From assembly GCF_058153355.1 (NCBI RefSeq), contig NZ_CM177019.1: DNA of 64,000 nt; one strand, 5' to 3'. Below, one piece after another: positions 1 through 63,257 of the stretch. The notes under the pieces were generated by a model. The model was not told the DNA's origin. It was given only the letters and a program-made list of their open reading frames with translations, and ran no database searches. The position numbers and the translations under genes are program-made. How positions within the stretch are numbered: the stretch's first letter is position 1; every line of letters starts with the position of its first letter.

Positions 1-660
1 TGCAACTTAACGCCCAGTTAAGACTCGGTTTCCCTTCGGCTCCCCTATTCGGTTAACCTTGCTACAGAATATAAGTCGCTGACCCATTATACAAAAGGTA
101 CGCAGTCACCCCATAAAGAGGCTCCCACTGCTTGTACGTACACGGTTTCAGGTTCTTTTTCACTCCCCTCGCCGGGGTTCTTTTCGCCTTTCCCTCACGG
201 TACTGGTTCACTATCGGTCAGTCAGGAGTATTTAGCCTTGGAGGATGGTCCCCCCATATTCAGACAGGATACCACGTGTCCCGCCCTACTCATCGAGCTC
301 ACAGCATGTGCATTTTTGTGTACGGGGCTGTCACCCTGTATCGCGCGCCTTTCCAGACGCTTCCACTAACACACACACTGATTCAGGCTCTGGGCTGCTC
401 CCCGTTCGCTCGCCGCTACTGGGGGAATCTCGGTTGATTTCTTTTCCTCGGGGTACTTAGATGTTTCAGTTCCCCCGGTTCGCCTCATTAACCTATGGAT
501 TCAGTTAATGATAGTGTGACGAATCACACTGGGTTTCCCCATTCGGAAATCGCCGGTTATAACGGTTCATATCACCTTACCGACGCTTATCGCAGATTAG
601 CACGTCCTTCATCGCCTCTGACTGCCAGGGCATCCACCGTGTACGCTTAGTCGCTTAACC
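1..660 (-). rRNA. rrlH: 23S ribosomal RNA, 5' portion (partial, continues beyond window start)
   Basis: Reverse complement of 601-660 reads GGTTAAGCGACTAAGCGTACACGGTGGATGCCCTGGCAGTCAGAGGCGATGAAGGACGTG, the canonical enterobacterial 23S 5' end; lies downstream of 16S/tRNA-Ile/tRNA-Ala on the same strand; ORFs here are spurious. Confidence 0.95.
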
Positions 661-833
661 TCACAACCCGAAGATGTTTCACTTCTGATTGCGAAAATTT
701 GAGAGACTCACGAACAACTTTCGTTGTTCAGTGTTTCAATTTTCAGCTTGATCCAGATTTTTAAAGAGCAAAACTTCGCAGTGAACCTTTGCAGGTACAC
801 TCTGAAGTATTTTTTATTTAATCACTACAGAGA

Positions 834-909
834 TGGTGGAGCTATGCGGGATCGAACCGCAGACCTCCTGCGTGCAAAGCAGGCGCTCTCCCAGCTGAGC
901 TATAGCCCC
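834..909 (-). tRNA. alaV: tRNA-Ala (anticodon UGC)
   Basis: Reverse complement is GGGGCTATAGCTCAGCTGGGAGAGCGCCTGCTTTGCACGCAGGAGGTCTGCGGTTCGATCCCGCATAGCTCCACCA; spacer tRNA of an rrn operon. Confidence 0.97.
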
Positions 910-951
910 ATAACATGTAGTTAAAACCTCTTCAAATTTGCGGTGCAAATT

Positions 952-1028
<77 letters not shown>

Positions 1029-1096
1029 GTAGAGGTTTTACTGCTCATTTTCATCAGACAATCTGTGTGAGCACTGCAAAGCACAGTTCTTTAAGG

Positions 1097-2638
<1,542 letters not shown>

Positions 2639-2762
2639 AAAAGTTTGATGCTCAAAGAATTAAACTTCGTAATGAATTACGTGTTCACTCTTGAGACTTG
2701 GTATTCATTTTTCGTCTTGCGACGTTAAGAATCCGTATCTTCGAGTGCCCACACAGATTGTC

Positions 2763-2782
2763 TGATAAATTGTTAAAGAGCA
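2763..2782 (-). promoter_or_regulatory. rrn leader boxA antitermination element
   Basis: Reverse complement reads TGCTCTTTAACAATTTATCA, matching the boxA consensus TGCTCTTTAACAA, in the 16S leader. Confidence 0.8.
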
Positions 2783-2822
2783 GTTGCGACGCGGCTTTCA
2801 GCTCACTGTCGCGAGGTGGCGT

Positions 2823-2850
2823 ATATTACGCTTTCCTCTTTCAGAGTCAA
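2823..2850 (-). promoter_or_regulatory. rrnH P2 promoter (-35 TTGACT, 16-bp spacer, -10 TAATAT)
   Basis: Reverse complement of 2823-2850: TTGACTctgaaagaggaaagcgTAATAT, upstream of 16S. Confidence 0.75.
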
Positions 2851-2933
2851 CCCTGAATTTCAGGATTTTTTCTCTTCAACCGAACCGGCTGTTTGTGTGA
2901 AGTGATTCACATCCGCCGTGTCGATGGAGGCGC

Positions 2934-2985
2934 ATTATAGGGAGTCGTTTCAGGAAGACAAGCGGAAAAATGCATTTTTATTTCA
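2934..2985 (-). promoter_or_regulatory. rrnH P1 promoter with AT-rich UP element (-35 TTGTCT, 16-bp spacer, -10 TATAAT)
   Basis: Reverse complement: taaaaatgcatttttccgcTTGTCTtcctgaaacgactcccTATAATgcgcc, closely resembling rrn P1 promoters. Confidence 0.75.
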
Positions 2986-3004
2986 ACCGCTCATCTTTTA
3001 ATCA

Positions 3005-3577
3005 TTACGCCGGTTTTTGCTGCTTTTTTATCGCTTGCGGCAGGTCTGCCAGGCTATTTAACACCCAATCCGCCGCGTTTTCTGCTTCAGGCGTAATAGG
3101 TTTTCCCGTACGCACCAGCACTTTTGTTCCCACGTTCGCCGCAGCCGCTGCCTGCATATCTTCTAATTTATCGCCCACCATATAAGAAGCGGCCATATCA
3201 ATATGCAAATAATCGCGTGCCGACAAAAGCATCCCCGGATGTGGTTTGCGGCAGTCGCAGACCTGGCGAAACTCTTCAACACTACCCTGCGGATGATGCG
3301 GGCAATAATAGATGCCATCCAGATCGACATCGCGGTCCGCCAGCGACCAGTCCATCCACTCGGTCAGCGTTTCAAACTGTGCTTCAGTAAATTTACCGCG
3401 AGCAATGCCAGACTGGTTGGTTACTACCACCAGCGCAAAGCCCATTTTTTTTAGCTCGCGCATGGCGTCAATAACACCGTCGATAAATTCAAAGTTGTCG
3501 ATCTCATGGACATAGCCGTGATCGACATTAATGGTGCCATCACGGTCAAGAAAAATTGCGGGTACGCTCTTCGCCAC
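3005..3577 (-). CDS. gmhB: D-glycero-beta-D-manno-heptose-1,7-bisphosphate 7-phosphatase
   Basis: 190-aa ORF starting [38 protein letters not shown]-family DxDGT motif; recognised as GmhB (YaeD). Confidence 0.93.
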
Positions 3578-58261: not shown

Positions 58262-60796
58262 TTAATTACTACCAAACATATCCTTGATCCAACCTGCTAC
58301 GCCGTCACTGTCTTTCTGCTCTTGCTGAGCAGGTTGCTGTTGCGGTTGTTGCTGCGGCTGAGAAGACTGATCAAACGGATTGCCTGACGGTTGCTGCTGA
58401 ATCTCACTCTGCTGGCACAGCGATTGCGGATCGCTGGTCCAGACCGGCAAGACACGCATGCCACCGCTGCAAACAAAGTTGCCGTCGTAGTCCACGCCCA
58501 TATCTGCAATATCTTCTGGTGGAACAAGATTCAGCGGTGTTGGTGTCTGGTTAGCCAGATAACGCTGATAAATCGACATTGCCCCACTGGCACCATACAG
58601 TTTGGTCGGCTGGTTGTTATCACGGCCTACCCAGGTGATGGTCACCGTGCTGCCGTCAATGCCCGCAAACCAGGTATCCACGTTGTTGTTGGTAGTCCCG
58701 GTTTTGCCCGCCAGATGCAGGTTCGGGTATTTCGCCCCAAGCTGACGACCCGTACCGCGTTGTACCACCTGCTGCATGGTCCATAGTGTCAGATACGCCG
58801 CCTGCGCCGGAACCGCGCGTTCCGCCTGCGGGAAGCTCTGATACAACACCTTGCCATCTTCCGCGATTACCGAACGCAGCGCAGAAAGCGGTGCTCGGTT
58901 ACCACCGCTGGCGATGGTCTGGAACGCCTGCGCCACTTCAATTGGCGTTAAGTTCAACGCCCCCAGCAGCATTGCCGGAACCGGATGCAGCTGATCTTTC
59001 GGTACGCCCAGTTTAATCCAGGTATCCGTAACCGCAGGCAGCCCCAACGCCATCCCCAGATTTACCGTCGGCACGTTCATCGAACGAGTCAACGCATCCA
59101 CCAGCATCACTCTGCCACTTTCGCTATAACGACGATCATCGTTCTGCGGTGACCAGACCTGGCCATTCGGCTGACGCAGCGCGATTGGCGCATCGGCAAT
59201 CCACGTGTTCAGGCGATAGATTTTCGGCTGGCTTAAGGCCGTCAGATAAGTCGCTGGTTTTGCAAGGGAACCAATCGAACGACGCGCCTGCATCGCACGG
59301 TTGTAACCTGCAAACTGCGGCTCAGAACCACCAACCATCGCACGAACTTCACCACTAAAGCGGTCGACGACCACAATTGCCGTTTCCAGATCGCTTAACT
59401 TACGCTGTTTCTTCAGTGCCGGAATGCCTTCCACGGCGGCTTTTTCCGCCGCGTCCTGAGCCACCGAGTCAAAGGTAGTGAAGATCTTCACGCCGGAGAG
59501 ATCTTTTACCTTATCGCCTAATTTCGCCTGCAGCTCCTGACGCACCAGTTGCATAAAGGCTGGCTGTGGAGAGATTACCCCACCACGCGGCTGAACCCCC
59601 AGCGGACGTGCACTCAACATGTCATAGAGCTCTTGATCAATAATCTGCTGTTGTTGCAGCAGACGCAGCACCAGGTTACGTCGCTCCAGCGCCAGTTTCG
59701 GGTTACGCCACGGGTTGTAGATCGACGCCCCTTTCACCATACCAACCAACAGCGCCTGCTGGTCGAGACTCAGCTCTTCTACCGGGCGACCAAAGTAGTA
59801 CAGGCTCGCCAGCGGGAAACCGCGGATTTCGTTGTCGCCGCTCTGACCGAGATACACCTCGTTCATATACAGCTCAAGAATGCGGTCTTTGCTGTAACGC
59901 GCATCCATGATCAGCGCCATGTAGGCTTCGTTCGCTTTACGCCAGTAAGAGCGCTCGCTGGAGAGGAACAGGTTCTTCACCAACTGCTGGGTCAGCGTAC
60001 TGGCCCCCTGTACCGTACGACCTGCCATCAGGTTCGCCAGCACGGCACGGCCAATGGAATAGAGACTGATCCCATCATGCTCGTAGAAATGACGGTCTTC
60101 AGTCGCCAACAACGTATCCACCAGCAAGTCAGGGAACCCACTGCGCGGCACAAACAGACGCTGCTCACCGTTTGGTGAAGAGATCATGGTGATCAGGCGC
60201 GGATCAAGACGGAAGAAACCGAACTGACGGTTGTTCTCCATATTGACGATGGTCGCCAGATGATCACCATCAAAAGTCAGACGCGCACGTACCTGCCCTT
60301 CTTTACTGTCCGGGAAATCAAACGGACGGCGGATCATTTCAATGCTGTTGGCCTGCACGGTAAATTCGCCAGGGCGCGTCATTTTCGACACCTGACGATA
60401 CTGGGTCGCCTCCAGCAGCTTCACCATCTCGTTTTTGCTGATGGTCATGTCTGGCTCAAGGTTGACCATTCGGCCATAAACAGCCGCAGGCAATTGCCAG
60501 ACTTTGCCATCAATACGGCTACGAATTTTTTGATCGAGATAAACACCGTAAATGGCGATCAGCACGGCAAAAACGATAGCCAGTTTTAGCAGCAGCCATA
60601 GCCAGCCGCGTTTGCCACGAGGCTTACGCCCTTTGCCTTTGCCCTTACCTTTGCGCGGCATCGGTTCTTCATCCTCATAGTCATCATAATCGTCGTAATC
60701 ATCGTCATCTTCGTAACGACGACGGCTTACCTTTTGTTTGACCGGACGCGTCGGTTTCCCTTTGCGTCCAATTGGCTCGCGGTCATTCCCGGCCAT
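58262..60796 (-). CDS. mrcB: penicillin-binding protein 1B (bifunctional glycosyltransferase/transpeptidase)
   Basis: ORF track 58262-60811; recognised PBP1b starts [18 protein letters not shown] (844 aa). Confidence 0.95.
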
Positions 60797-60889
60797 GCTT
60801 TTTCTCCGCAATATTCAGGCGCAAAAGCCCGATTTTCTGTTCTTCTGTAACAAGACAGAAGAAGATATCTCTCAAATTTACTTTGGTCT

Positions 60890-63184
60890 TCATGAATACT
60901 TTTTCGTCCGTCGCGTCGGTGCGGTATTTGCCGGATCATCCGGCCAGACGTGTTTGGGATAACGCCCTTTCATTTCTTTTTGCACCTCGCGATACGCTCC
61001 TTTCCAGAAGGCACTCAAATCTCGTGTGATTTGCAGCGGCCTTTGGGCAGGAGAAAGCAACTCCAGCACCAGCGGCACACGCCCCTGGGCGATCGTCGGA
61101 TTGGTGGCCTCGCCAAACATCTCCTGCATTCTCACCGCCAGCGCGGGCGGGTTATCTTCATGGTAACGAATGGCGATCCGGCTTCCCGTCGGCACAGTGT
61201 AATGCGCAGGCAATTCACTATCCAGACGTTGCTGCATCCCCCAATCAAGTAATCCGCGTAGCGCCTGATAAATATCGAGTGATTTCAGGCCGCGTAGCGA
61301 ATGTACGCCTGCCATATGCGGCAGTAGCCACGTTTCCAGCGTCGCCAACAAACTTTCATCATCAACCGCTGGCCAGTCATATTCTGGCAACCACCTGGCG
61401 GCGCATAACAAACGCAAGCGTAGCTGTTCCGCTTCCGGCGTCCAGTTAAGCACGCTTAAGCCTTTATCACGAACGCCGTTAAGCATCGCCTGATGCAGCT
61501 CGTCTTCTGAAGGCTTCGCCAGCGGCTGCACTTTTACCGTCAGTTGACCAATTTGCAACCGACGCCAGGCTTTCAGCGTACCTTGCGCATCATCCCACTC
61601 CACGGTGTCCGATTGCTGCACCAGCTGCGGACAGCGTTGCACTAATTCATCGATATCGACCGGTAGCGCCAGTAAAATCCGCGCATCCGGCGAGGCGCTA
61701 CCCTGCAATAATAACGGTGCGATAAGCGAACTGTCTGCCTCACCGCCGCGTACGTTTAAGCGCTTTAACAGTTGCTGGCTACGTTGCTGCCAGGCAGGTT
61801 GATTGCGCGAAAACGCCACGCCCAGATCGATATTGCCCATCCGTGGTGGCTCTTCGAGAATAGCGGCAATTTTTGCAGCGGTAGCAGCTTCGTCGTCGCT
61901 CTTTACGCTCACCAGCATTGCCGCTAAACGCGGATCGTTACCCAGCGTCGCCATTTTCTGCCCTTTCGTGCTTAGCCGTTCACCGTCCATCGCCCCCAGC
62001 ATCCGCAACAGGCGTTTCGCGGCCTGTAAATTCACGGCTGGCGGTTGATCCAGCCAGCTCATCTGCGCCGGATCGCTGCATCCCCATTGCAGTAATTCCA
62101 TCAGCAAACCGGAAAGATCGCTTTGTAAGATCTCCGGTTCACTTTGTGCGGCAGCGCGTTCTGCTTGTTCTTTGGCGATTAAATGCAGGCAGATACCCGG
62201 CTCCAGACGCCCGGCACGCCCGGCACGCTGCGTCATCGACGCCTGACTGATTCGCTGAGTAATCAACCGCGTAAGTCCTGTACGCGGATCAAAACGCGCC
62301 ACCCTTTCCTGGGCGCAATCCACCACCAGACGAATACCTTCGATGGTTAAACTGGTTTCAGCAATATTGGTTGCCAGCACCACTTTGCGCATCCCTTCTG
62401 GTGCCGGAAGGATCGCTTTTCGCTGATCGTTCAGCGACAACGCGCCATACAGCGGGCAGAGCAACACATCACTACCGATGCGCGAAGCCAGTTGTTCCTG
62501 AACGCGCTGAATTTCTCCGACACCAGGTAAAAATAACAGTAATGAGCCGCTTTCCTGATGCAGCAATTCGGCGGTGGCAACCGCCACGGCTTCATCAAAA
62601 CGCTGATGAGCGAGCAGCGGTAAATATCGGCGTTCAACCGGAAATGAGCGCCCTTCTGAGATGACGACGGGCGCTTCTGGCAGCATCTGCTGCAAGCGGT
62701 CATTGTCCAGCGTAGCCGACATAATCAGTAGTTTAAGGTCATCACGCAGACCTTGTTGCACATCGAGTAACAGCGCCAACGCCAGATCCGCCTGCAAGCT
62801 GCGCTCATGAAACTCATCGAGGATCACCAATCCAACGCCGCTCAGTTCAGGGTCACGCTGGATCATGCGCGTCAACACGCCTTCGGTAACTACTTCCAGG
62901 CGAGTATTTGGCCCGACACAGTTTTGCGCGCGCATCCGGTAGCCTACCGTATCACCTGTTTTTTCGTTAAGCAGTTCCGCCAGTCGTTGCGCAACGTTAC
63001 GCGCCGCCAGGCGACGCGGCTCCAGCAGGATAATTTTTCCGTTAATGCCGGGATGCGCCAGCAGTTGCAGCGGCAGCCAGGTTGATTTCCCGGCCCCGGT
63101 CGGCGCACTTAATAACACCTGCGGTGCACCATCGAGGGCAGCAAGTAACTCAGGTAAGACGACGGCAACGGGCAACGACGACAC
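60890..63184 (-). CDS. hrpB: ATP-dependent RNA helicase HrpB (DEAH-box); appears about 45 codons shorter than the K-12 reference I recall
   Basis: ORF track 60890-63229 (779 aa from ATG); recalled HrpB start (M)SSLPVAVVLPELLAAL corresponds to the GTG at 63182-63184, giving 764 aa; motifs GAGKST, DEFH, SAT present. Confidence 0.85.
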   Translation of the reverse strand: MSSLPVAVVLPELLAALDGAPQVLLSAPTGAGKSTWLPLQLLAHPGINGKIILLEPRRLAARNVAQRLAELLNEKTGDTVGYRMRAQNCVGPNTRLEVVTEGVLTRMIQRDPELSGVGLVILDEFHERSLQADLALALLLDVQQGLRDDLKLLIMSATLDNDRLQQMLPEAPVVISEGRSFPVERRYLPLLAHQRFDEAVAVATAELLHQESGSLLLFLPGVGEIQRVQEQLASRIGSDVLLCPLYGALSLNDQRKAILPAPEGMRKVVLATNIAETSLTIEGIRLVVDCAQERVARFDPRTGLTRLITQRISQASMTQRAGRAGRLEPGICLHLIAKEQAERAAAQSEPEILQSDLSGLLMELLQWGCSDPAQMSWLDQPPAVNLQAAKRLLRMLGAMDGERLSTKGQKMATLGNDPRLAAMLVSVKSDDEAATAAKIAAILEEPPRMGNIDLGVAFSRNQPAWQQRSQQLLKRLNVRGGEADSSLIAPLLLQGSASPDARILLALPVDIDELVQRCPQLVQQSDTVEWDDAQGTLKAWRRLQIGQLTVKVQPLAKPSEDELHQAMLNGVRDKGLSVLNWTPEAEQLRLRLLCAARWLPEYDWPAVDDESLLATLETWLLPHMAGVHSLRGLKSLDIYQALRGLLDWGMQQRLDSELPAHYTVPTGSRIAIRYHEDNPPALAVRMQEMFGEATNPTIAQGRVPLVLELLSPAQRPLQITRDLSAFWKGAYREVQKEMKGRYPKHVWPDDPANTAPTRRTKKYS

Positions 63185-63257
63185 AAAACGCTCCAGAGGG
63201 TTAACATTCTTCGCGCCACATTGTAGCATCGCGGTAATGCATAACCGAGTACCTCAC

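Follow-up and report, generated by a model that had tools for sequence, protein, structure and literature searches.

The question raised by this locus is whether the low-complexity cytoplasmic tail of PBP1b changes in length from one Escherichia coli strain to another and, if it does, what kind of variation this is. It was posed by a stretch of 64,000 nucleotides (NCBI RefSeq assembly GCF_058153355.1, contig NZ_CM177019.1; hereafter the window). A preliminary description, made from the letters of the window, had placed an acidic repeat followed by a basic one within positions 60600-60730, in the 5′ part of mrcB, and had suggested that the run of triplet repeats underneath could slip, so that tail length might vary between strains. 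Its peptides and coordinates were right, the repeats being encoded on the minus strand (Table 1).

The ORF at positions 58262..60811 of the minus strand translates to a PBP1b of the E. coli type. The initiation codon of mrcB is the ATG at 60796..60794, with a GGAG sequence (60807..60804) seven bases upstream. The order of Pfam domains is canonical: PBP1_TM (residues 1-79; 3.9e-25), UB2H (113-197; 1.7e-25), Transgly (209-379; 7.4e-56) and Transpeptidase (473-714; 2.1e-24). PBP1b chains in the PDB match the window protein with E = 0, and the matching gene carries the RefSeq label mrcB in 5,424 of 5,426 complete E. coli genomes. The window has an hrpB-like ORF (60890..63229, minus strand) immediately upstream of mrcB, and hrpB-mrcB-fhuA is the gene order in the RefSeq annotation of the 16 genomes fetched. 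The window and K-12 share this domain order, the tail protein (with the same Met46 and the same N-terminal peptide) and all 131 nt of tail DNA, whereas the remainder of the window gene differs from K-12 by ~5%.

The repeats of the PBP1b tail and the two isoforms of the protein are already known; the alpha and gamma isoforms of E. coli were reportedly described by Broome-Smith et al. in 1985 and Chalut et al. in 2001. With the composition of the rest of PBP1b, a run of 17 residues made of D, E and Y only is expected ~7e-13 times per protein, and the peptide KGKGKGKG ~5e-8 times. Met46 sits between the acidic and the basic repeats. All solved PBP1b structures start at residues 53-58, most of the tail being absent from the crystallised constructs. 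By prediction the tail is an intrinsically disordered domain, and the long (alpha) and short (gamma) forms of the E. coli protein have two starts 46 codons apart (Navarro et al. 2026, PMC13423804). Its first ~14 residues are the conserved part reported to bind FtsA; in the K-12 protein binding is predicted to go through R6-E303, with two assays in support, and the alpha-specific tail is required for midcell recruitment and septal fortification (PMC13423804). That study leaves the acidic and KG blocks undissected. Residues 1-14 of the window protein are identical to those of K-12, including R6, P8, I9, G10 and R11. Gamma may have its ribosome-binding site in the purine-rich GAGGA of codons 41-42, a proposal based on sequence: the Glu codon within it has a third-position G in 46 of 64 species, and the two adjacent Glu codons mostly end in A.

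Table 1. Features of mrcB in the window (positions refer to the 64,000 nt stretch).
Feature	Position	Strand	Remarks
mrcB (ponB) CDS, PBP1b alpha isoform	58262..60796	-	844 codons plus stop; ORF list, Pfam, RefSeq
N-terminal peptide of alpha-PBP1b, codons 1-14	60755..60796	-	6 distinct versions in 80 species; FtsA binding per PMC13423804
Acidic D/E/Y repeat, codons 28-44 (17 residues)	60665..60715	-	alpha isoform only; TRF period 9/18
(GAT)2, codons D32-D33	60698..60703	-	site of the one-codon deletion (DDDD to DDD); from alignments
GATTA(N4)GATTA direct repeat, codons 33-37	60687..60700	-	site of the 9-nt (YDD) deletion in CFS3292
GAGGA in codons E41-D42	60672..60676	-	Shine-Dalgarno-like; 11 nt upstream of the gamma ATG
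ATG of Met46, start of the gamma isoform	60659..60661	-	from sequence; gamma start per PMC13423804
Basic KG repeat, codons 49-64 (16 residues)	60605..60652	-	juxtamembrane, both isoforms; TRF period 6
(GGCAAA)2, codons G52-K55	60632..60643	-	site of the 6-nt (GK) deletion; duplication specific to Escherichia
Transmembrane helix from W65, end of the cytoplasmic tail	60536..60604	-	22-residue hydrophobic stretch; Pfam PBP1_TM
C-terminal QQQP repeat, 13 residues	58332..58357	-	second length-polymorphic tract in mrcB; TRF period 12

The repeats exist, but the regularity of the DNA beneath them had been overstated. The repeats are imperfect in the DNA: Tandem Repeats Finder (TRF) finds periods of 6, 9 and 18 nt in the tail with 76-78% match and scores of 36-54. 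Synonymous codons alternate along the tail (GAT/GAC, TAC/TAT, AAA/AAG, GGT/GGC/GGG) and, because this alternation breaks the repeats, just (GAT)2, (GGCAAA)2 and GATTA-N4-GATTA remain perfect. The longest perfect tandem repeats in the tail have two units.

The 131-nt tail sequence common to the window and K-12 was used as a query against complete E. coli genomes, 5,424 of which were matched: 5,092 at an identity of ≥99%, 319 at 95-99% and 13 at 90-95%. The weakest matches were read for indels and each type was then counted with allele-specific queries. The K-12-length allele, with no change or at most one mismatch, accounts for the 5,092 genomes of the upper band. Four allele types are shorter. 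The D deletion (179 genomes) lacks one GAT out of (GAT)2, and the GK deletion (132 genomes) one GGCAAA out of (GGCAAA)2, leaving three KG instead of four. A double allele (11 genomes) combines the two deletions with two substitutions (GAC for GAT and GAA for GAT), and the YDD deletion (1 genome, CFS3292) removes 9 nt between the GATTA repeats. Nine of the 5,424 genomes carry other differences in the tail, outside these types. A shorter tail is therefore found in at least 323 of the 5,424 complete genomes (6.0%), a proportion of a clonally biased collection and not a population frequency. All tail indels observed are of 3, 6 or 9 nt, in frame, and each of them coincides with a short perfect repeat, as would be expected of slipped-strand mispairing. 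The expected variation of tail length between strains was thus borne out, if modestly (1-3 codons), and the idea of slippage-prone repeats is supported in a limited form; alignment across strains, the check that had been proposed, uncovered codon-repeat polymorphism in place of a length identical in all E. coli. PBP1b of common strains can have 844, 843, 842 or 841 residues, which matters for annotation and allele typing.

The shorter alleles are not confined to one source of isolates. Carriers were sampled from human, pig, dog, chicken, baboon, rodent, sprouts and water, and the variant alleles are RefSeq protein accessions shared by unrelated assemblies. A small exact-pattern scan of metagenome contigs, in which the spacing was left free at both repeats, yielded 21 loci: 18 of K-12 length, one D deletion, one GK deletion and one double allele. 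Expansions were sought at the two tandem-repeat sites with a query lengthened by one GAT and one GGCAAA, and no genome scored above the identity expected for the K-12 length. That contractions alone are seen fits slippage from a two-unit repeat but could also reflect selection against longer tails. A full-text literature search found no report of within-species length alleles of mrcB.

The tail stretch is repetitive, and repeats are error-prone on some sequencing platforms, so that the variants could have been sequencing or assembly errors. Errors would hardly leave variants that are always in frame and never at homopolymers, nor place the same alleles in 179, 132 and 11 independent finished genomes as well as in metagenome contigs. 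In trees drawn from mrcB without the tail, the alleles moreover cluster according to lineage. We give an artefact practically no credence.

Repeat slippage is also what drives phase variation at the simple-sequence contingency loci of Haemophilus, Neisseria and Campylobacter. The likeness lies in slipped-strand mispairing at tandem repeats within a gene, probable in the case of mrcB, and here the repeat is inside the coding region and near its 5′ end; a locus of that kind would switch PBP1b, or its alpha isoform, on and off. Against this, units of 3, 6 and 9 nt never break the frame and cannot act as an on/off switch, and the perfect tracts have two units only, compared with six or more in typical cases. 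The alleles are lineage-stable as well: 94% of genomes share one length, the variants follow deep lineages and CFS3292 is the sole recent singleton. No frameshift allele was found among the loci read. With short tracts and a reading frame that every change preserves, the tail is not a phase-variable locus, a conclusion that we hold with near certainty.

Whether each deletion arose once or several times was examined by comparing the hrpB-mrcB loci of 16 genomes, at 1,872 sites in hrpB and, beyond the tail, at 2,030 sites in mrcB. Four strains with the GK deletion (MCJCHV-1, 95-3322, PSUO2 and A37) form one tight clade whose sister group is a pair of strains with K-12-length tails. This clade is separated from PapM-32-1 or DSM103246 by 85-95 substitutions in mrcB and 72-79 in hrpB. 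PapM-32-1, which also has the GK deletion, differs from the clade by 90-95 substitutions in mrcB and 72-75 in hrpB, and from a full-length O157 strain by only 22-26, while DSM103246, with the double allele, has a background separate from both GK-deletion groups. The D deletion is likewise found on three backgrounds: 7/2 with EC571 and PCN033; 06-00048, which lies 62-72 substitutions off; and the double-allele lineage. The mrcB gene of CFS3292 (YDD deletion) is that of K-12 over all 2,030 sites. With three or more unrelated mrcB/hrpB backgrounds for the D loss and likewise for the GK loss, either recurrent slippage or short-patch recombination is indicated. These two look alike here because the flanking ~200 nt are nearly devoid of SNPs. 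The alleles are mostly stable lineage markers, not hypervariable tracts.

Carried to its end, the recombination reading holds that each deletion had a single origin and was spread by homologous recombination of a short 5′ segment of mrcB, the repeats then being no mutational hotspots. Recombination in E. coli runs in short tracts. Apart from the deletion itself, most carriers of the D or the GK allele match K-12 at every position of the 125-128 nt of tail, as such spread would have it, and the SNP-poor ~200 nt would mask the breakpoints. The double allele fits less well, for with two substitutions of its own it looks like a separate haplotype, and so does the YDD deletion, a singleton on a K-12-identical gene. 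All four changes fall at perfect repeats, and similar gains and losses of units are seen in other genera, which also speaks for repeats that mutate. We consider a single origin of each deletion unlikely, while allowing it an appreciable chance.

The range within which the tail varies is better seen between species. One scan of species-representative genomes of Enterobacteriaceae yielded 80 loci, and all 80 share a common layout: N-terminal peptide, basic patch, D/E/Y block, usually a ...EEPMP sequence, K/R-G block and transmembrane helix. Residues 1-14 are near-invariant (six versions in the 80 species) and an internal Met is present in 65 of them. The tail measures 58-69 residues (mean 63.6, SD 2.0); its acidic block has 11-19 residues and 58 distinct sequences, its basic block 17-28 residues. 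Runs of D differ among Citrobacter (DDDY, DDDDY, DDDDDDY). GGCAAA is single in the Salmonella, Citrobacter and Enterobacter species examined, and perfectly duplicated in E. coli, E. albertii and two cryptic Escherichia lineages. As it is single in the species examined outside Escherichia, the state with four KG is derived, and loss of one unit in the GK deletion brings back precisely the ancestral DNA. Cytoplasmic N-terminal tails are also known from class A PBPs of Gram-positive bacteria, where they bind GpsB (cited in PMC13423804). These are disordered extensions, as the PBP1b tail is predicted to be, and likewise carry a short terminal motif for recruitment to the division machinery; their sequence is unrelated, as is their partner (FtsA in the case of PBP1b), and the enterobacterial acidic/KG layout is foreign to them.

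The explanation that we favour, and regard as likely, is in-frame slippage at the residual perfect repeats of a probably disordered tail, probably nearly neutral and bounded by stabilising selection. The tail would be built, in order, of the FtsA-binding peptide (residues 1-14), the basic patch, the acidic block present in alpha only, Met46, the KG block and the transmembrane helix. The acidic block would act as an alpha-specific linker and the KG block as a juxtamembrane cluster of positive charge in both isoforms. Replication slippage at (GAT)2, (GGCAAA)2 and GATTA-N4-GATTA, the mechanism that we infer from the position of the indels, would now and then drop one, two or three codons. The deletions would then persist as lineage markers, having arisen or been transferred several times. 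Stabilising selection would keep total tail length and charge pattern within narrow limits, the exact length of each block mattering little. Near-neutrality of the alleles is an assumption; the changes are probably close to neutral because the segment is a flexible linker or charge block and not a folded or binding element.

Length variants might instead be adaptive, tuning the length or charge of the linker, or the alpha:gamma ratio, in particular lineages. The requirement of the alpha-specific tail for midcell recruitment and septal fortification (PMC13423804) makes such tuning conceivable. The site of the GK deletion is 12-24 nt past the gamma ATG, the limit of 58-69 residues over 80 species indicates selection on length, and in two separate lineages the D and GK deletions are combined so that the net charge stays +5. 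The changes are nevertheless of 1-3 residues within a probably disordered linker of ~50, and the carriers sampled are of diverse host and origin. The idea that the acidic and basic blocks compensate each other's charge from species to species was considered and rejected, since the two charges show no correlation among 72 distinct tails (Spearman rho 0.15, p 0.20). We judge adaptive tuning very unlikely and retain nearly neutral slippage as the likelier explanation of the length alleles.

The tail is not the only length-polymorphic tract in mrcB. Variants of the C-terminal QQQP repeat lack three or four residues (21 sequences), and ~776 of 5,423 genomes (~14%), BL21 among them, have identity values in the range expected if 9 nt were lost, a further source of length differences in PBP1b.

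A separate observation concerns the nucleotide sequence at the beginning of the gene: variation in the first ~200 nt of mrcB is roughly tenfold below that in the rest of the gene. For 17 E. coli genes, nucleotide diversity in nt 1-200 is 0.002-0.004, as compared with 0.01-0.067 in the other parts of mrcB and in hrpB. When the amino acid is kept constant and degeneracy class is controlled for, codons 1-90 show synonymous polymorphism at 1/37 and 4/46 codons, the remainder of mrcB at 52/247 and 197/462 (Fisher p = 0.005 and 2e-6). Identity to K-12 reaches ≥99% in 94% of genomes for the tail segment but in only 41% for a segment of equal length at +401..+531. No genome of the collection matches the window gene at more than 98.0%, and identity is ≤95.3% for all of them but one; the first 200 nt of the window gene show 0 differences from K-12 where 9.9 are expected (P = 5e-5). 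In E. albertii the same 200 nt have 3 differences for 16.4 expected (P = 7e-5). Codon identity in the 5′ region exceeds that in the rest of the gene in Citrobacter (0.91 vs 0.69) and Enterobacter (0.81 vs 0.69), the effect being weaker in more distant groups. In these strains hrpB has no comparable trough of SNPs at its start. A lowered rate of synonymous change near the beginning of enterobacterial genes is said to have been described by Eyre-Walker and Bulmer in 1993, who reportedly listed a secondary ribosome-binding site downstream of the start among the proposed causes. mrcB resembles those cases in the far smaller number of synonymous differences at its 5′ end, and its genuine downstream start fits such a cause; it differs in that the effect, ~tenfold over ~200 nt, looks larger and that the start of hrpB is without it.

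The first ~200 nt of mrcB might carry an unrecognised function at the nucleotide level, be it in the choice between alpha and gamma starts, as an mRNA regulatory target or as an overlapping transcript. We put this forward tentatively, as an idea with less than an even chance. If true, it would explain why substitutions are nearly absent across Escherichia and reduced in Citrobacter and Enterobacter, slippage being the main variation that survives.

Several candidates for a signal in this region were tried and rejected. Deep synonymous constraint does not extend over the whole set of 81 sequences: the tail, with a codon identity of 0.56-0.68, does not stand out from the remainder of mrcB (0.52-0.76), the 5′ constraint appearing only within genera and among close genera. 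A conserved hairpin pairing the gamma GAGG with the CCUC of codons 58-60 had 6 pairs, -4 kcal/mol and no covariation in an RNAalifold analysis of 31 species, and Kosakonia keeps GAGG but not CCUC. Unusual mRNA stability was suggested by a z of -3.6 for a 261-nt region, but windows of 200 nt gave ~-2, like their neighbours up to ~+650. An ORF of 40 amino acids in the +1 frame (60586..60708), rich in Met, Thr and Ile, owes its openness to the GAT/GAC/TAT codons, since this frame has no stops where NTN codons are absent. A search of positions 60300-61000 for an Rfam family and for promoter-like or terminator-like sites found none.

The length alleles described here are small in-frame indels of an ordinary kind, located in a region predicted to be disordered. 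Although PBP1b is an antibiotic target and a major synthase of peptidoglycan, the practical consequence of the alleles is small; if anything new is to come from this locus, it would be from the SNP-poor 5′ region. Natural losses of 1-3 residues within E. coli, together with differences of up to 11 residues between species, indicate that the acidic and KG blocks are a length-tolerant linker and charge element and not a precise binding surface, and the naturally short alleles are ready-made material for testing the linker idea.

Base substitutions are about tenfold fewer in the first 200 nucleotides of mrcB, the PBP1b gene, than in the remainder of mrcB and in the upstream hrpB, both within E. 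coli and genus-wide. The window and K-12 differ at 0 of 200 nucleotides in this segment and at 4.9% deeper in the gene. Synonymous polymorphism is found in 5 of 83 codons of the 5′ segment versus 249 of 709 elsewhere. Inspection of positions 60300-61000 for an RNA family, a promoter or a terminator revealed no cause for this low substitution. Matches to mrcB were obtained in 5,424 genomes of the E. coli collection (three of them in plasmid-labelled records); in two genomes nothing matched the 5′ end of mrcB.

Features of the mrcB region (window coordinates)
Feature	Position	Strand	Remark
C-terminal QQQP repeat of mrcB, [13 protein letters not shown]	58332..58357	-	second length-polymorphic low-complexity tract in mrcB
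+1-frame ORF	60586..60708	-	40 codons, Met/Thr/Ile-rich, overlapping the acidic and basic tail repeats
SNP-poor segment, mrcB nt 1-200	60597..60796	-	compared across E. coli and the genus
Hairpin (10 bp)	60684..60727	-	predicted mRNA fold, Arg codons against Asp-run codons
hrpB-mrcB intergenic region	60797..60889		93 nt in the window; compared with other strains, including loci L099-L102

The predicted folding of the mRNA forms this hairpin by pairing three Arg codons (codons 25-27, CGU CGU CGU) with codons of the Asp run (GAU GAC GAU G). According to this model, the D deletion (loss of one GAT codon from the Asp run) would shorten the 3′ arm of the hairpin by one pair. No evidence marks the +1-frame ORF as a gene; it is a by-product of the GAT/GAC/TAT codons, since stops cannot arise in the +1 frame without NTN codons.

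The QQQP tract is 3-4 residues shorter in several lineages (AVS0655, S6, PCN033 and Escherichia sp. E1V33). Some 776 of 5,423 complete genomes, BL21 among them, show identity levels that would fit the loss of 9 nt at this repeat, a figure for which the sequences themselves were inspected in a few genomes only. The hrpB-mrcB spacer has the window length in many strains versus ~195 nt in K-12, O157, DSM103246 (double tail deletion) and CFS3292 (9-nt YDD deletion), and therefore carries a ~100-nt insertion present or absent depending on the strain. Strain 11899A has still another sequence upstream of mrcB.

The mrcB body of the window (58400..60400) has its best match, at 98.0% identity, in Z0117EC0005, an isolate from a dog; in the other 5,423 genomes the identity does not exceed 95.3%. 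The hrpB of the window (60890..63229) differs from that of 16 E. coli strains at 105-138 of 1,872 sites. The window thus does not belong to mainstream E. coli, and these sequence differences in mrcB and hrpB suggest a divergent Escherichia lineage.
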